The notes under the pieces were generated by a model that saw nothing but the letters and a program-made list of their open reading frames with translations, did not search any database and was not told where the DNA came from. From a virus (taxonomy: Duplodnaviria; Heunggongvirae; Uroviricota; Caudoviricetes), in the IMG/VR virus record IMGVR_UViG_2667527592_000002: DNA of 64,000 bases, one strand, 5' to 3'. A program made the translations under genes and the position numbers. Position 1 is the stretch's first letter, and every line of letters starts with the position of its first letter. Below, piece by piece: positions 5,179 to 33,560 of this stretch.

Positions 5179-6216
5179 TTACCAGAGCTTCGCGGCGTAC
5201 TGCGTTTGGGGGAATGTGTATCCGTAACGTTCTTCGATTGCTTTGCCGTATTTTTTACGAGCTTCATTCAGTTTAATGCCGGTCAGGTCGTCTCCAGAGG
5301 CCATCATTACCTCTAACAATTCCAGATCCATTTTATCCAGCCTTGCCATTGCTTCACGTGATGTACGTATCTTACGCTCAATGATATGGCGAATAGCCGG
5401 ATCGGCATCCTCCAGCATCTTAGCGGATTTCTGCTTAAGGCTTTCATTGCGAATATCGATGTTCCTTAAGATGTACGACTTCGCAACGTAGCTTGGCTGG
5501 TGTTTTTCCAGGTCACGAACACGATATAAGTTAAAATCGCCGAGAAGGCTGCAAGGTACCGATTCGACGCCAGAATAAATTGTAATGCTCCGGCGTTCAC
5601 CAACATTATTGACAACGGGGATCGTTGTCTTCGGTAGTCTTGCGAAAACCAATGCGCCATGTGCGCCAACTCTAAAGCGAGAAAGGGCATTGCTGCCTTC
5701 GATGTTTGTTGTCAGCACAACATCTGTATATGCCTCTTTACGCGCCCGGTAGATCTCGCCTTCAGGCTCAGCTTCAAAGAAGCGCTGTTCTTCTTCAAGA
5801 GCGCCTACGATTTGAGAAAAAACCCTATTTTTCAGGCTTTTCTTTATGATTTTGTCGTATTTTTTGAGCAATTGTTCACGTGTAAATGTACGTGTTGTTG
5901 TAGCGCTTTGCACAACAACATGCGTGCTTTGATTGGTGTCCTCAATGATGAATGGGATCGGAGAATATACAGACTCAACAATGTTCGACGCTTTGCCGTC
6001 GGCATCGCGGCACATGTCAACGAAGGCTTTCCATTCAGCAAGACATTTTTCAGCTTCTTCTAATATGTTTTGGTCATGCGTTAATGCAACATGGCGGAAT
6101 TCCTCGCCAGCATAACTGGTATCATGGAAAACAGAGTTTGCGACCACCAGCTCTTTCCACCGTTCAGCGGTTTGCAGGAACCGTTTGTACTCTTTCTCGA
6201 TCGACTTCTTACTCAT
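5179..6216 (-). CDS. hypothetical protein (345 aa); candidate lysogeny regulator by position
   Basis: ORF track; ATG with AGGA RBS; operator-like motif 16-33 bp upstream; sits between terminase and lox-cre. Confidence 0.55.
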   Translation of the reverse strand: MSKKSIEKEYKRFLQTAERWKELVVANSVFHDTSYAGEEFRHVALTHDQNILEEAEKCLAEWKAFVDMCRDADGKASNIVESVYSPIPFIIEDTNQSTHVVVQSATTTRTFTREQLLKKYDKIIKKSLKNRVFSQIVGALEEEQRFFEAEPEGEIYRARKEAYTDVVLTTNIEGSNALSRFRVGAHGALVFARLPKTTIPVVNNVGERRSITIYSGVESVPCSLLGDFNLYRVRDLEKHQPSYVAKSYILRNIDIRNESLKQKSAKMLEDADPAIRHIIERKIRTSREAMARLDKMDLELLEVMMASGDDLTGIKLNEARKKYGKAIEERYGYTFPQTQYAAKLW

Positions 6217-25806: not shown

Positions 25807-26022
25807 ATGGCTACTATCCCTACCCCAACTCATTCTGAATTTATCTGGCGTTTCTATTCCTGCCAAAAACACCTGTATATCTGCGTAATGGCTGCTACCG
25901 AAGCAGAAGCTCGTTCATACCTTCCTGAAGAACCCTGCATTTTTGCCGCACGCTTCACTCTTGATGCGATGGAGATCCTCAATTACTGGAATCTGCCGAT
26001 GAACTGCGTGGAGGTGCACTGA
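25807..26022 (+). CDS. small protein overlapping antirepressor start (Icd-like position, 71 aa)
   Basis: Strong RBS AAGGAGG; stop overlaps next start (TGATG). Confidence 0.45.
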   Translation: MATIPTPTHSEFIWRFYSCQKHLYICVMAATEAEARSYLPEEPCIFAARFTLDAMEILNYWNLPMNCVEVH

Positions 26023-26963
26023 TGAATCTGCCCATCTCTCGCAAAGCGACAATGACCAGTATTGAGATCGCGAAACTGGTGGGAAGTCGTCACTCTGATG
26101 TTAAACGCAGCATCGAAAGACTTGTTGCTAAAGGTGTTATCCAACATACGCCATTGGCTACAGTTGAGAATAATCAATCACTTAGCCCTAATAAATACAC
26201 AAAAGCCTATGTCTTCGAAGGCGAACAAGGCAAACGAGACAGTATCATTGTCGTCGCACAGCTCTCTCCGGAATTCACCGCCCGGCTGGTGGACCGCTGG
26301 CGCGAACTGGAGAATGCCAGGGGACCGTTAAAATCAAAAGCCGAAATCCTGGCTGAAATGGCGCAAATGCATCTTGAGCATGAACGCCGGATCAACGCCG
26401 TAAATGCCCAGGTAGCCGAGGTATCAGCACAAGTATCGATGGTTGCTGAAACACTCGAGCAAATAAAGAAAGGCAATATTCCGGAAGGCTACATTGGCTA
26501 CCGCCAGCTGGCGGCGAAATGCGGCCTGACTGAAGCCAAATGCCGAAACCTGGTCAACGCTTACCGGATTCCCACCGATACGCATGAGTTTTTAACTCCA
26601 GATGGTTTGCTTGCGCGACGCTCCATTGTGGCCCTGGCCCCCTTCCGGAAAGCCTTTAAGCAGGTGATGTCGGAGGCAGAACCACGCAATAAACGCTGGT
26701 ATCATCCAAAGATGGGGATGTTTCAGGCAATCCACCATCCTGTGCCTGAAAGCCCAAAGGATAATCTGTCACTACATACCGCCAGAGAGAAGATCAGGAC
26801 TGGATACGCAACAGTGTGTCGTCGTTCTTCCTGGCCTGAAGGTGTATGGGTATGGCCCGAAGGTGGATCACGAAAGCACTGGCGCACCATCCGGGACGGA
26901 AAAATCCATGCTATTGATTTAGCTCCAAAGGATGTTATTGCTATGGACTGGATTGTTAGTTAA
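26022..26963 (+). CDS. Rha-family phage regulatory protein / antirepressor-like
   Basis: N-terminal TSIEIAKLVGSRHSDVKRSIERL matches Rha-domain pattern; 313 aa. Confidence 0.7.
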   Translation: MNLPISRKATMTSIEIAKLVGSRHSDVKRSIERLVAKGVIQHTPLATVENNQSLSPNKYTKAYVFEGEQGKRDSIIVVAQLSPEFTARLVDRWRELENARGPLKSKAEILAEMAQMHLEHERRINAVNAQVAEVSAQVSMVAETLEQIKKGNIPEGYIGYRQLAAKCGLTEAKCRNLVNAYRIPTDTHEFLTPDGLLARRSIVALAPFRKAFKQVMSEAEPRNKRWYHPKMGMFQAIHHPVPESPKDNLSLHTAREKIRTGYATVCRRSSWPEGVWVWPEGGSRKHWRTIRDGKIHAIDLAPKDVIAMDWIVS

Positions 26964-27022: not shown

Positions 27023-27334
27023 ATGAAAAAAATAGATTTCACTTATTCTGCCGCCACAATCCAGCGACGTTTCAGTCTCATAAGGGAAGTGGAACTATCA
27101 AAAAACTTGTATCAAATTCTACTGGATGAAGAGTTTTCACTGATGGTTATAGCAGAAAAATTAGCTATGCCGAACGACCGGCACAAGGTCATAGCCAGCC
27201 TCGATCTGGTGACAAACAGATACTGGGAGAAAGAGGAACTACATGAGGCGGGAGTAATTCGTGACCTGATGGAGAATTCCGTTCCCCGCCGCTATCGTGC
27301 AGGGAACGGCATCTCCGTGGTTAAAGGTGTTTAA
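27023..27334 (+). CDS. hypothetical protein (103 aa)
   Basis: ORF track. Confidence 0.4.
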   Translation: MKKIDFTYSAATIQRRFSLIREVELSKNLYQILLDEEFSLMVIAEKLAMPNDRHKVIASLDLVTNRYWEKEELHEAGVIRDLMENSVPRRYRAGNGISVVKGV

Positions 27335-27723
27335 AGCTCACCTGCGCGCTGTTTTTCAAGCACAGATTTAACATTTGGCGCTTTCCCTTTAAAAGAATGG
27401 AAAGTGCCACATTTTTCTGTTTTAACCTCGCGCAGAGCTTCGCCATCGGCGTTCTGCCATTGATGGGATAATGTCATATCACCGCGAGAAGGAACATCCA
27501 GCGAGTACAGCGTGTAAGTTCCCCCCATCTCCGCATACTCCTGGAACACATAGCTCATTACGTCAGATTCAGTTTTTCGGTGTGCGTTATCAACCTTATT
27601 CCCATTCAGAAATATGGCATCTGGATAGATTTTTATATCAAACCGACCGCACTTAACTTGTAAATTTCCGGCGCTCGCGATCAAAGGGAAAGACGCCAGT
27701 AAAGCAATAGCCAATCTTTTCAA
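27331..27723 (-). CDS. secreted protein with signal peptide (130 aa)
   Basis: MKRLAIALLASFPLIASA signal-like N-terminus. Confidence 0.5.
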   Translation of the reverse strand: MKRLAIALLASFPLIASAGNLQVKCGRFDIKIYPDAIFLNGNKVDNAHRKTESDVMSYVFQEYAEMGGTYTLYSLDVPSRGDMTLSHQWQNADGEALREVKTEKCGTFHSFKGKAPNVKSVLEKQRAGEL

Positions 27724-27743
27724 TTCTGCCTCCGCTGCGTAAC

Positions 27744-28367
27744 TTATTGCCCGTATTTTTTACACCATTGCTCTGCCATTTGTTTGGCTAAAGGCCCGGC
27801 TACTGCACTGTATTCTGCTGTTTTACTTTGCACACATGAAGCAGATGGTTTTTTATTTCGCTGCTCGGTTAGTTTGCGCTCATAAGCCATCATGCTATCG
27901 AACCCGGCAATATCACTTTGGCGAAGCATTCCCTTTTTAACCAAAAATTGCTGCCCCTCTGGCACCAACGCAAGCATAAAAAGTGGTTGCAATAACTCAC
28001 CTAATCCTTGCTGGCGATACACTTCGAATTGCTGCCATCCCTGACTTAATCTGGAAAGAGTATCTTTGGTTGAATAACCTGTTTTTGTTATAGCTTTGTC
28101 CGTCAGATATGCTGTATATGCAAAAACGCAAAAGTCAGTTTTACCAATAAACTGAGTTCCAACAGGCCGTAATGGAATGCCCTCCCTCTTGCAAAAGTCC
28201 ATAATTGCCGCTTGTGAATGATCCCCACCAGCGTTATTCATAACCTGCTGCCCTGCCCTGAATTGTGCAGGTAACGCAGTTGCATTGGCAGTATTAACAG
28301 ATACGCATCCCAACATAGCCGCGAGCGCGGCCCCTAAAACCCTTAACTTCACTACACCATCCTTCAT
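27744..28367 (-). CDS. secreted/periplasmic protein with signal peptide (207 aa)
   Basis: Hydrophobic N-terminus ending ANA; ORF track. Confidence 0.5.
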   Translation of the reverse strand: MKDGVVKLRVLGAALAAMLGCVSVNTANATALPAQFRAGQQVMNNAGGDHSQAAIMDFCKREGIPLRPVGTQFIGKTDFCVFAYTAYLTDKAITKTGYSTKDTLSRLSQGWQQFEVYRQQGLGELLQPLFMLALVPEGQQFLVKKGMLRQSDIAGFDSMMAYERKLTEQRNKKPSASCVQSKTAEYSAVAGPLAKQMAEQWCKKYGQ

Positions 28368-29617: not shown

Positions 29618-29947
29618 ATGGGCTATAGCAGACTCGACGATAGGTACATTGAAGACGATATTTTTCGTGCGCTGTTTCACCAGGAAATGATTAAGCGGGT
29701 ATCGGAGTATCACTCTGATAATTTCCAGTACACGATAAAGATTGATGAAGTATATCGTTCAGACCTTGCAGCCTACAGGGCGTATGGCAATGCAGATTTG
29801 CGCTGGGTATTCCGGGTGCTGGTGGGCCATGAGTCAGAAATGGAAGAAATGCCCGCCGGGACCACGTTAACTCTTCCTGATGTGGCATGGCTGAGGAACA
29901 AGATCCGTGATTACGCGAGCGCGGAACCGGAGATAGAAAATGCCTGA
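29618..29947 (+). CDS. hypothetical protein (109 aa)
   Basis: ORF track. Confidence 0.45.
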   Translation: MGYSRLDDRYIEDDIFRALFHQEMIKRVSEYHSDNFQYTIKIDEVYRSDLAAYRAYGNADLRWVFRVLVGHESEMEEMPAGTTLTLPDVAWLRNKIRDYASAEPEIENA

Positions 29948-31133
29948 TTTCCTGAAAAACCAGGACGGGCGCTATATCACTGACGGCCTGTCCTCTAAGG
30001 ACTTCACGCGTTTATTCGACCTTATCAGGAAAGAACAAACCCGTAAGCGCCGACAAGCTCACCGGACGCTGACGCCAGGCAGACTTAGGAACAAATCCGC
30101 CGAAGATATTCTCAAGTTAGGGAAGAAAAAAGGCGGCACGTTCTTCACGCGAGACGACCTGAAAGGTTTCGAAAAGCTACGGAGTAAAACGCGCGAAAAA
30201 TATGACAGCAAGACGGCTGGCATCACATACGCCCAGCTGGTGGCATCCAGCCAGGCAATCGATATTAAGCGTGCAAATAACGCCGTGGATGACGGATCTG
30301 GTATCAAAAGAGCTACACCCGTATCTCTTCGCCACAATGTGATTAATATCCGCGTAGAAGCATCGGATATATCCGTCCACCAGCACCATATCGTCCGGAT
30401 ACGCTTTGAAGAATGGGATCAGATGGTTGATGACATCGCAGAAGACGATAAATCAGCTCTCAAAATAACTAAATCACTGTGCGCCGGGCGAGTGTCTTTC
30501 GATTGTGACTGTGGTCGCCATCAATACTGGTATCGCTACATCGCCACTGCGGGTAACTTTGCCCTGGCACCGCCAAAAGAATACGCCTATCCAAAAGTTC
30601 GCAACCCTAAGCTGCAAGGTGTCGCCTGTAAACACGTGATTCACGCAATGACGCGGTTACAGTCCGCCAGTTGGCAAATGAGTATTGCTCGTGCGCTACA
30701 AAAGGCTGCAACGCAAATTGCATTTGGTGACGATCGCCGCCGTACAACCAAACACTTCTCAAAAGAAGACGAGAAGGAGTTTAATCGCAATCGTAGCAGT
30801 AAAACGAACGTTGAAGCCGCCAAACGCGAATGGAGGCTCTATCAGAAGCGCCAGGCAGCTTTAAGTACAAAACTGGCAAAGGACAACGGCAAGATCGACA
30901 AACTACGTGACCAATTGACCAAGGCCAGAAAGTTGTCAGACGCACAGAAAAAACGGGCGGCAGCAAAAGAAGCGGCCTTGCAACGTGAGAAACAGAAAAA
31001 CAAGGAGCTTCAGCAACGCCTTGCCGATCAGTTCGCACTGAAGAAGCAGGCGTTCATTGATGCGCTTGTCATGGCTGGAACACCACCAGCACAAGCTGAA
31101 AAAATGTTCATGGAGTATGTAAAAAAAGCATAA
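29940..31133 (+). CDS. hypothetical protein with SWIM-type zinc-finger-like motif and basic coiled-coil C-terminus
   Basis: FDCDCGRHQ ... ACKHVIHA (CxCx(n)CxH pattern); 397 aa. Confidence 0.5.
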   Translation: MPDFLKNQDGRYITDGLSSKDFTRLFDLIRKEQTRKRRQAHRTLTPGRLRNKSAEDILKLGKKKGGTFFTRDDLKGFEKLRSKTREKYDSKTAGITYAQLVASSQAIDIKRANNAVDDGSGIKRATPVSLRHNVINIRVEASDISVHQHHIVRIRFEEWDQMVDDIAEDDKSALKITKSLCAGRVSFDCDCGRHQYWYRYIATAGNFALAPPKEYAYPKVRNPKLQGVACKHVIHAMTRLQSASWQMSIARALQKAATQIAFGDDRRRTTKHFSKEDEKEFNRNRSSKTNVEAAKREWRLYQKRQAALSTKLAKDNGKIDKLRDQLTKARKLSDAQKKRAAAKEAALQREKQKNKELQQRLADQFALKKQAFIDALVMAGTPPAQAEKMFMEYVKKA

Positions 31134-31142
31134 ACCACACAT

Positions 31143-31176
31143 AGCCTAGCTGCCTAGGCTAGGCTTTCATCTTTTT
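31143..31176 (+). terminator. hairpin AGCCTAGC-TGCCTAG-GCTAGGCT followed by T-rich run
   Basis: 8-bp stem; T-tract overlaps stop codon of convergent AT-rich gene. Confidence 0.5.
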
Positions 31177-31895
31177 GAAAAATCAATTTCCGTTTTATCA
31201 AATAAATTTGAAATATCAGCAACCAATTTATTAAAATCATGATCGCCATTATAAAGCGAAGTCTTCTTTATTGCCATTACAAAATCATATAACTTTTCTG
31301 GGGAGTCAATACCAACCCCTCTACTTTTAAAAAGCTCAATGATAACTCCAACATCATCATATAATAACTTTATTGCCGCTATAATCTCTTTTTGCTGCCT
31401 AAGAAATCTCTCAAGTTCATTTTTATTTTCATCCATAATTCTTTTGTTGAATTGTGTATCATTAATACTTTTTATTATTTCAGTCTCTTTTATTTGCAAC
31501 GCCTTTCTTTTATTTTGATCCATGTCGGCATCCAAATACCTTATCTCTGTATATATTTTACTTGTTAGCTTTGATACGCAAAGAGTGACAATCGGAGCTG
31601 CAATTGATGCAATAATTCCAAAAATAAATGGCAAGCCAAAATGATAAAACCAAGGAGACAAAACGCCTTCATAAACTAGAGGAATCTTACCTCCAACAAA
31701 TGTTACAGATAAAGTATATAGGATATCATCCTTTGACTTCATCAATATTAGTATATCTTTCCAATTAATAATTAAAAAAGAAATGAATATATATGCAAAC
31801 ACTTTATTAAAAAGCTTGTCTTTTATGGCATCTCCAAAAGATACTTTGATTAGATCATTTTCAGTCAATTTTTCTGTTGATGAATCTGTATTCAT
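31167..31895 (-). CDS. AT-rich two-TM membrane protein with cytoplasmic coiled-coil domain (242 aa); candidate exclusion/abortive-infection protein
   Basis: Locus visibly far more AT-rich than flanks; TM segments VFAYIFISFLIINW and FGLPFIFGIIASIAAPIVTLCV; K/E/I/N-rich coiled-coil C-terminus. Confidence 0.6.
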   Translation of the reverse strand: MNTDSSTEKLTENDLIKVSFGDAIKDKLFNKVFAYIFISFLIINWKDILILMKSKDDILYTLSVTFVGGKIPLVYEGVLSPWFYHFGLPFIFGIIASIAAPIVTLCVSKLTSKIYTEIRYLDADMDQNKRKALQIKETEIIKSINDTQFNKRIMDENKNELERFLRQQKEIIAAIKLLYDDVGVIIELFKSRGVGIDSPEKLYDFVMAIKKTSLYNGDHDFNKLVADISNLFDKTEIDFSKR

Positions 31896-31957
31896 ATAAA
31901 CTACCGGGATTACTAATATCTATTTTATGAAAATAGCGGTCATCCAGACCGCCAAAC

Positions 31958-32317
31958 TCAAATACCAACCAAGCTTTCAAGAGGAATGCCAAACTGGGAA
32001 TGTAAACGGCGAATCATAGGTAACGTCAAATTTCGTGTCCCATTTAGCACTTCGTAAACACGATTTGACTTACCAATCGCCGGTTCCAGATCCTTCACGG
32101 TCAGCCCTTGCTGTTCCATACGGAATTTAATGGCCTCAATAGGTGATGGTGGCTCAATTGGGTAATGTTTTTTCTCGTACTCCTCAATGAGAAGACACAT
32201 GACCTCAAAGAAATCACCTTCCGGGGTGTTCATTTCCGGTTCGTTATCGAACATCGGTTCGACCGCACGCAGTGCGGCCTCATAATCTTGTTCTGTACGG
32301 ATAGGTTTAATGTTCAT
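31958..32317 (-). CDS. higA: HigA-family antitoxin (HTH)
   Basis: C-terminal GKSNRVYEVLNGTRNLTLPMIRRLHSQFGIP matches HigA HTH region; downstream of higB. Confidence 0.8.
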   Translation of the reverse strand: MNIKPIRTEQDYEAALRAVEPMFDNEPEMNTPEGDFFEVMCLLIEEYEKKHYPIEPPSPIEAIKFRMEQQGLTVKDLEPAIGKSNRVYEVLNGTRNLTLPMIRRLHSQFGIPLESLVGI

Positions 32318-32320
32318 GAT

Positions 32321-32623
32321 TTACTCCAGTTCTATTGTATCCGCGTCAATGGCATCGTATTCCTTGTGTGTTCCAATAAATTTAACGAACATCCATCCTC
32401 GCTGATAAGCAATTGCGACAATTAACCTGTAATCATTTCCCTTAATATTGAACACCACGCGCCTGTTTTTAAGGATGCTGGCTGTCCGGTACTGTTCTTT
32501 GATCTCAGCCGGATTTTTCCAGTCAGCCTTTGTTGCTTCATCAACCCATGCCTTTAATGGCTGTTCTGCATCGGGATTCTTCGCCCAGAAATCCCTTAGT
32601 GTCTTTACCGAAATTATTTTCAT
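32321..32623 (-). CDS. higB: HigB-family toxin (RelE/ParE fold)
   Basis: FNIKGNDYRLIV ... KFIGTHKEYD parallels E. coli HigB; ATG 32623 after GAAGGA RBS. Confidence 0.8.
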   Translation of the reverse strand: MKIISVKTLRDFWAKNPDAEQPLKAWVDEATKADWKNPAEIKEQYRTASILKNRRVVFNIKGNDYRLIVAIAYQRGWMFVKFIGTHKEYDAIDADTIELE

Positions 32624-32653
32624 CACAGATTCCTTCTTTCTGAAAGTATAGTA

Positions 32654-32699
32654 GTCCCAATATGGGACAATGTAAAGTACTTTAGTCCCATGCTGGGAT
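32654..32699. promoter_or_regulatory. two palindromic operator-like sites in higB promoter
   Basis: TAGTCCCA-ATA-TGGGACA (32654-32668) and TAGTCCCA-TGC-TGGGATA (32685-32699), 31 bp apart. Confidence 0.45.
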
Positions 32700-32726
32700 A
32701 TGAATTGAAATCACAATCTCCAGACA

Positions 32727-33560
32727 ATGCACCCTCGATACCTGATAAATCGACCTTTGAGGATGCTTATGGGCCGTTTTGACGAATGGTTTGCTGACGA
32801 TGCAAACCTGGCAAGTAAGGAGTCAGAACATGACAGCACGCAGAGAGAAACGCCAGCGGCGGTTGAAGCGGATGCAGGAAGCGCGCCGGAACATGGCAAT
32901 GCCGGACCGGATTCATTCAGCATTCTGGAAGAGCAATCCACCGCCGAAGCTGATAGCCATGATAATTTTGCTGATAGCAACGGTGGCCTTACTCCGGACG
33001 CTGGCGAATCAAATATAGCCATACTTCCACCTTCCCTGGCTGGCAGAGAACCGACTCCACAGCTAAAAGCACGCTATAACGGGCATAAAGCCTTTAACGA
33101 CCAAATCCGCGCAGACTGGATGCTGATTATTGAATCCAGCCCAGACGCGTTTCAGGCTCTCTTATATCGACCAGATGTTGGCACATATGGGGTAGTCAGC
33201 GACGAAACAGGAGAAGAGTCATTCACTGAACTGGATAACAACCAACGCGAACTGACTTACCAGGAACCTGAAATCGTTTATGTGCTGGATAACCCGGACG
33301 GGCGTGACTCTTTCCATGCGATTGACGCAGACGGTGAGCAGGATGGCTTAACCGATGATGTTCTGATTCTGCGTATTGCAGCAAATAACGTCCCCGTCGG
33401 ATCAATTCTTGAATGGAATGAAGAGATGGTAAACGGCGTAGCCCGCCGCTGGTTGTACGTGCACCGTATTTTTAGCTACGGCACACAGCATGTTGGTTCG
33501 CTTTACTACTGCATACCGGCCAGGAATTTTGATACGACTCAAAACGGAGTGATCGAATGA
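32727..33560 (+). CDS. hypothetical protein, acidic N-terminus (possible virion protein)
   Basis: ORF track; alternative start ATG 32769 has the better RBS. Confidence 0.45.
   Translation: MHPRYLINRPLRMLMGRFDEWFADDANLASKESEHDSTQRETPAAVEADAGSAPEHGNAGPDSFSILEEQSTAEADSHDNFADSNGGLTPDAGESNIAILPPSLAGREPTPQLKARYNGHKAFNDQIRADWMLIIESSPDAFQALLYRPDVGTYGVVSDETGEESFTELDNNQRELTYQEPEIVYVLDNPDGRDSFHAIDADGEQDGLTDDVLILRIAANNVPVGSILEWNEEMVNGVARRWLYVHRIFSYGTQHVGSLYYCIPARNFDTTQNGVIE

Follow-up and report, generated by a model that had tools for sequence, protein, structure and literature searches.

In phage HK97, gp15 is an inner-membrane superinfection exclusion protein encoded by a moron in the tail operon, with an aberrant GC content and its own terminator; the protein was called small, and its precise mechanism is not known (PMC3594210). 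SieA of phage P22 is an inner-membrane protein encoded by the prophage and sufficient alone, and its sequence types are less than 30% identical (PMC10883804). In the PD-lambda-2 system (Vassallo et al. 2022), component B is a fusion of HigA with a peptidase and component C is P4-antitoxin-like (PMC9519451). The word "transmembrane" is absent from the descriptions of the Tai (tail assembly inhibition) proteins (PMC11364771). We compared these systems with a gene, here called X, that lies next to a higBA pair in a window of 64,000 nucleotides (the whole stretch of DNA that was analysed). The resemblance of X to gp15 and SieA is limited to logic.

The window is a D6-like phage-plasmid from the P1 family. 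The DNA of the X locus is 98.7% identical to orf73 and orf72 of phage D6. X and D6 orf73 are one and the same gene, which falls in PHROG 8191; the ORF thus has existing database entries, and it belongs to no described family or fold. Matches to the locus were present in 95-127 of the 5426 complete Escherichia coli genomes. Related DNA occurred in 95 complete E. coli genomes, always on a plasmid and never on the chromosome. The features of the locus are the following (coordinates in the window, strand, description).

29940..31133, plus strand: tail protein like that of P1 gene 25, bordering the cargo site on the left
31142..31165, both strands: terminator-like hairpin, between the X stop and that of the gene 25 homologue, which is convergent with X
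31167..31895, minus strand: X, coding sequence of 242 aa with an ATG start (phrog_8191; WP_044869656.1), GC 0.29
31896..31933, minus strand: X leader of about 38 nt, ..TTTTCATAAAATAGAT..GGTAGTTTAT-ATG, kept across diverged alleles
31934..31954, minus strand: hairpin (GGCGGTC-TGGAT-GACCGC) straight after the higA stop and before the X start
31958..32317, minus strand: higA-like HTH antitoxin of 119 aa (PF01381)
32321..32626, minus strand: higB toxin of about 100 aa (PF09907, 3.4e-34; PD-Lambda-2_A, 3.5e-42, full length)
32727..33560, plus strand: tail protein like that of P1 gene 7, bordering the cargo site on the right

The preliminary description of this DNA had singled out X for its AT content, and both the coordinates of the ORF (242 codons) and its outlying composition were borne out. 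The GC content of X is 0.291 (GC1 0.37, GC2 0.27, GC3 0.23), compared with a mean of 0.469 for the window. The GC profile revealed X as a compositional island, the lowest-GC stretch of 729 bp in the whole 64 kb (z = −5.0), and no other gene of the window has a GC content below 0.40. X has no paralogues within these 64 kb. A hairpin terminator had been noted beside the gene, and terminator-like hairpins were indeed found on both sides of it. Terminator-like sites numbered 8, against 1.6 expected.

The position of X is best understood from its relatives. P1, P7, and Cronobacter phage JK004 have gene 25 directly followed by gene 7, in an unbroken late operon 26-25-7-24-6-5. In the D6 lineage the same operon is split between genes 25 and 7 (26-25 and 7-24-6-5) by a cargo island on the opposite strand (window 31134-32726). 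In plasmid pTB423, which lacks X, a single hairpin (GGCGGTC-ATACA-GACCGCC) parts gene 25 from higA, and in the relatives without X the hairpin after the higA stop is the sole one between these two genes. Relative to pTB423, the window has X and a second hairpin inserted between the pTB423-type hairpin and the gene 25 stop, and the alignment shows that the hairpin at 31142-31165 is part of the inserted X cassette. X is missing with precise boundaries from both pTB423 and pCREC455-3. It has most of the marks of a moron in the sense of Hendrix and Juhala (PMC3594210): absence from close relatives, a GC content unlike that of its neighbours, and a terminator hairpin of its own.

If the site is a hotspot, related elements should carry different cargo at the position of X, as the preliminary description had pointed out, and this was the case. 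We found at least eight cargo states at the junction of genes 25 and 7 (in loci including L001, L003, L008, L044, L045, and L046). The junction holds higBA alone in pTB423; higBA and X in the window and in CP066033; relE-higA, a lone HTH gene, and X in D6; relE-higA and an HTH gene without X in pCREC455-3; relE-higA, a 66-aa higA remnant, and X in further relatives; and umuD-umuC with X in Klebsiella grimontii. Another relative carries a "stationary phase growth adaptation protein" there, and yet another a lone small HTH gene. The island of K. grimontii also encodes the Lamassu protein LmuA (6.5e−198), 4.7 kb from umuDC and X. X is thus an autonomous, horizontally exchanged accessory cassette, or moron, in an insertion hotspot of the D6 lineage: a fixed site in a conserved tail operon that receives swappable toxin-antitoxin modules, Lamassu, umuDC, and hyper-divergent membrane proteins. 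Our search of the literature on phage-plasmid hotspots returned nothing specific to X.

Two other regions of the window deserve mention. At 27331-28367, two genes on the opposite strand (minus) encode proteins of 130 aa (phrog_13864) and 207 aa (phrog_12786) with N termini resembling signal peptides, and in D6 the same position is occupied by a simB-like "superimmunity accessory" gene. This region may be a second variable cargo site. A homologue of Ant/Rha-type anti-repressors (phrog_63, 2.3e−59; PF09669) is encoded at 26022-26963, upstream of a cluster of small genes.

X had been described as belonging to no recognised family, and our searches agree with this. Pfam, NCBIfam, and PADLOC (PADLOC-DB v2, E ≤ 1) gave no match, and the sole strong match in PHROG was phrog_8191 (full length, 5e−113), whose annotation gives no function. 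A fold search of the X model against PDB and BFVD gave no match either, and sequence searches of PDB, using either X alone or the family profile as query, returned only compositional matches (transmembrane segments of GPCRs, SMC, ZapB, ATP synthase subunit b). Similarly, the comparison of 77 family members with described families yielded only compositional coiled-coil noise (LmuB, JetC, ZapB). A scan over the locus with Rfam identified no RNA family, no source gave an informative name for the X family, and a literature search by accession and PHROG identifier retrieved no paper on X.

The family is real but rare. A word-indexed protein search with X returned 19 clusters, nearly all from E. coli, and an exhaustive profile search of 1.84 billion proteins identified 86 representatives at E ≤ 1e−3; a scan of genome contigs yielded no confirmed relatives. 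One of the distant members belongs to a lambdoid prophage, where it is encoded between the replication and nin genes on the opposite strand. Others, with upstream intergenic regions of 0.4-0.75 kb, are found in islands with genes for methylases, DUF4942 proteins, H-NS, and WYL regulators. These neighbourhoods are weak in defence genes, with the exception of K. grimontii. A conserved neighbour shared by the distant members was considered and rejected, since the downstream genes of 149 aa in two of the loci (L036 and L039) are not homologous. Many database copies of X are labelled "partial" and end at contig borders, and short-read assemblies often break inside the gene, which might be caused by its extreme AT content or by co-resident alleles.

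The X protein is predicted to cross the inner membrane twice and to have its N and C termini in the cytoplasm. The AlphaFold2 (AF2) model built from the family alignment is confident (pLDDT 88.6) and, together with hydropathy and conservation, gives the following parts (all on the minus strand).

31740..31802: transmembrane (TM) helix 1 (about aa 32-52), holding N44 and W45; from hydropathy, AF2, and conservation
31656..31739: predicted periplasmic loop (aa 53-80), low in K+R
31572..31655: TM helix 2 (about aa 81-108), with near-invariant P89, G93, and P101; from hydropathy, AF2, and conservation
31323..31571: long polar helical stalk (aa 109-191), predicted cytoplasmic and hypervariable; from AF2
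31194..31301: small C-terminal helical head (helices at aa 199-211 and 219-234), moderately conserved; from AF2

The two N-terminal TM helices proposed earlier are predicted both by hydropathy and by the model. The arrangement of a membrane anchor followed by a cytoplasmic domain is also supported, by positive-inside statistics over the whole family. Among 77 members, the N-terminal flank has a K+R density of 0.21, the C-terminal flank one of 0.19, and the loop between the helices one of 0.11, and the two flanks together are richer in these residues than the loop in 73 of the 77. By the positive-inside rule, this predicts an N-in/C-in topology and would place the stalk and the head in the cytoplasm. 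The coiled-coil domain of the preliminary description fared less well. In the AF2 model one unbroken helix follows the TM segments up to residue 191 and ends in a two-helix head, which had not been mentioned. The long helix thus stands, and a coiled coil is plausible only, since the heptad periodicity is weak.

Conservation is concentrated in the membrane part of the protein. Across the family, N44 is conserved in 100% of the members, W45 in 94%, and P89 and P101 in 99%; S39, S54, and G93 are conserved as well. Among close alleles, the inter-TM loop conserves K53, S54, D57, T61-L62-S63, and G68. The residues conserved family-wide all lie in or beside the TM helices, which makes the membrane module the functional core that the family conserves, and more than an anchor.

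The divergence of X is out of proportion to that of its neighbours. We compared 27 phage-plasmid loci pairwise at the protein level. The median identity was 98% for the gene 25 homologue and 96% for the gene 7 homologue, against 37% for the whole X protein. Within X, it was 56% in the TM module (aa 20-120), 22% in the stalk (aa 121-175), and 32% in the C-terminal head (aa 176-242). Within allele classes, pN/pS was 0.33-0.43 for X and 0.04-0.10 for gene 25, indicating that X is under purifying selection, which is looser than that on the tail gene. Intact copies of X make up large protein clusters of 208 and 535 members.

The AT-richness of X had been read as a sign of recent horizontal acquisition. 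The insertion itself is supported by pTB423, where X is lacking, and by the adjacency of genes 25 and 7 in P1. Its recency is open to doubt: the allele class of the window also occurs in D6 and in numerous isolates of E. coli and Salmonella, and the AT-richness is family-wide. X is AT-richer than its flanks, by 6-18 GC points, in every allele and distant member with usable flanks. Being common to all of them, the AT-richness is an old trait of the family and not in itself evidence of recent arrival.

Copies of X are also found outside phage-plasmids. About 55 Klebsiella plasmids, such as pQDE2-C of Klebsiella pneumoniae (L004, 4171-6765), carry higB-higA-X on large non-phage IncFIB replicons. 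There the locus is surrounded by IS elements and X is cut in two by IS903B; compared with the Enterobacter allele, the two parts of the split gene are 57% (N-terminal) and 44% (C-terminal) identical. Since it has been split, X must be dispensable on these plasmids.

What X does is a matter of comparison with the systems introduced above. We consider it plausible, though short of probable, that X is an anti-phage determinant expressed by the lysogen and acting by exclusion or abortive infection (Abi). Four observations argue for this reading: the site gathers toxin-antitoxin modules and, in one relative, Lamassu; the allelic diversity at a fixed site of a conserved backbone is deep and comparable to that of P22 SieA; HK97 gp15 provides a precedent; and a conserved membrane module that continues into a variable cytoplasmic part would follow the effector-plus-sensor logic of Abi systems. 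Against it, coiled-coil regions diverge fast even without an arms race, the overall pN/pS of X is below 1, the family matches no known defence model or fold, the defence neighbourhoods of distant members are weak, and the copies on Klebsiella IncFIB plasmids are disrupted.

The comparison with gp15 rests on a gene in the tail operon, a GC content off the norm, an own terminator, and a product in the inner membrane, which is predicted in the case of X. The two differ in that X has 242 aa with a long cytoplasmic stalk while gp15 is small, and the family libraries reveal no sequence relationship between them. The divergence among SieA sequence types is comparable to that among X alleles (26-58% identity), but SieA has 162-164 aa, three predicted TM helices, and no stalk, and has no detectable homology to X. 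More generally, no homology to characterised superinfection exclusion (Sie) proteins was detected by PHROG, where only families of unknown function were matched, or by comparison with BFVD and PDB folds. The predicted cytoplasmic position of the variable part of X agrees better with intracellular sensing than with the blocking of a periplasmic conduit and would thus slightly favour Abi over Sie.

Lambda RexB and the TM effectors of CBASS and Pycsar combine a conserved membrane module with a variable or ligand-sensing cytoplasmic part. X may share this logic of membrane effectors; a partner sensor or cyclase gene is absent from its locus. In such a mechanism, the variable stalk and head would recognise a product of the incoming phage or mobile element, or, alternatively, hold the protein as an inactive oligomer. 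The conserved membrane module would then act as the effector, by making the inner membrane permeable (abortive infection) or by hindering the translocation of DNA across it (exclusion). Membrane permeabilisation by X is purely hypothetical and is proposed by analogy with these effectors. It is possible, if somewhat doubtful, that X is the founder of a new family of single-protein anti-phage systems, made of a membrane effector (Asn-Trp, Pro/Pro), a rigid stalk, and a diversifying sensor head with allele-specific phage ranges, and that the D6-type gene 25/gene 7 junction is a defence hotspot comparable to those of P2 and P4.

Alternatively, X could be an accessory membrane protein unrelated to defence, involved in the envelope or division physiology of the host lysogen, in tuning the lysis or DNA entry of the phage-plasmid in the manner of a holin or antiholin, or in plasmid retention as a membrane toxin. 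We regard this as rather unlikely, albeit worth serious attention. Class II holins have two TM helices in the N-in/C-in topology predicted for X; they are small and encoded in the lysis cassette next to the endolysin. X was rejected as a member of this class. Its topology fits, but it has 242 aa, about 135 of them predicted cytoplasmic, unlike known holins, and it lies between tail genes, on the strand that does not carry the late operon and not near any lysis cassette, with no lysis gene adjacent. Its absence from P1 and from some D6-like relatives argues that it is not needed for the phage cycle. In favour of a role outside defence, part of the other cargo at the site has no defensive function (umuDC and the "stationary phase growth adaptation protein"), X matches no defence model, and many of the functions encoded by known morons are unrelated to defence (PMC3594210). 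Against such a role, loci involved in conflict are the more typical place for such extreme diversity of alleles at a fixed site.

The neighbours of X offer another explanation, namely that HigB, HigA, and X form a tripartite system similar to PD-lambda-2, in which the toxin-antitoxin pair would regulate or arm the membrane protein. The adjacency of X to higBA, part of the preliminary description, was confirmed: the two genes show the arrangement of a type II HigBA system, with the toxin first, a RelE-fold HigB (PF09907) followed at 3 nt by an HTH antitoxin (PF01381), on the same strand as X. The functional link that it seemed to imply did not hold, since X is also found without an intact higBA. 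The three genes do share strand and order, with a gap of 62 nt between higA and X, and in this they are like PD-lambda-2, which also consists of three genes on the same strand starting with HigB-like and HigA-like ones. HigB and HigA also match PD-Lambda-2_A and the N terminus of PD-Lambda-2_B, respectively. A higA-like gene directly precedes X in about 30 of the 33 loci fetched, and the order higB-higA-X recurs with divergent higBA in Enterobacter phage-plasmids and in the non-phage Klebsiella IncFIB plasmids.

Nevertheless, several observations make a tripartite system improbable. In the commonest X allele class (P0002 cluster, 535 members), higB has been replaced and higA is reduced to 62-66 residues without the HTH, while X is intact; the hairpin between the higA remnant and X is gone as well. 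In K. grimontii, umuDC and not higBA is upstream of X, the distant members of the family are stand-alone genes, and higBA occurs without X. In the window, a terminator-like hairpin parts higA from X. As a general rule, the tripartite arrangement is ruled out by the class with truncated higA, the umuDC context, and the stand-alone distant members. The loss of higB and higA, these contexts, and the existence of higBA without X indicate that X is autonomous and that it is the history of the hotspot that has placed it next to higBA. The identity with PD-lambda-2 itself was rejected. Component A has its counterpart in HigB (3.5e−42). The PADLOC match of HigA to PD-Lambda-2_B (7e−43) covers only positions 1-119 of the 402 of the profile, the protein has 119 aa, and Pfam identifies no peptidase domain in it; X has no match to PD-Lambda-2_C. 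The higBA of the window (31958-32626) may be a plain toxin-antitoxin relative of the kind from which PD-lambda-2-type systems are built.

Finally, X could be a decaying or selfish remnant without function, its AT-richness and divergence reflecting a foreign origin, as the IS-disrupted copies on Klebsiella plasmids, the relatives without X, and the lack of a strong promoter might suggest, but this is very improbable given that the frame is intact in all allele classes with pN/pS of 0.33-0.43, that the TM residues are invariant although the family has diverged to about 15-20% identity, and that the family alignment yields a confident AF2 model.

If X is an anti-phage determinant of the lysogen, as we tentatively propose, it should be expressed from the prophage state, and the region upstream is relevant to how this could occur. 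No sigma-70 promoter with a match of at least 9/12 was found directly upstream of X, and the candidates identified by eye were weak (8/12), overlapped the hairpin, and were not counted as evidence. The expression of X in lysogens is therefore putative. From its sequence context, expression of X may depend on read-through of the weak hairpin after higA, which would make this hairpin (31934..31954) a possible attenuator between higBA and X. The leader between the hairpin and X has a pattern (..CATAAAAT..GGT-N7-ATG) that is also present in loci L002, L021, L023, L025, and L026. These approximately 38 nt are conserved while the coding regions of the alleles are only about 35% identical, which suggests that the leader is a regulatory element.

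Remains of higA are frequent upstream of X. A 66-aa N-terminal remnant without the HTH (phrog_10398) is found just upstream of X at 5725-5925 of locus L016, and also in L013-L020 and L033; it was retained in the commonest E. coli allele class after a relE-higA pair replaced higB. D6 keeps a full-length orphan higA at this position (L001, 4859-5218). The retained 5' half of higA may carry signals for the expression of X.

Phage-plasmids of the D6 and P1 types are frequent in E. coli and Salmonella, and phage-plasmids have been linked to the spread of antibiotic resistance. The site between genes 25 and 7 is a defined place to seek new genes involved in conflicts between phages or between phages and their hosts. 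If X is not anti-phage, it is still an unexplained and selectively maintained membrane protein present in many clinical and veterinary isolates. If X excludes or aborts phages, its series of alleles, 26-98% identical in a near-identical backbone, would be a ready system for mapping specificity.
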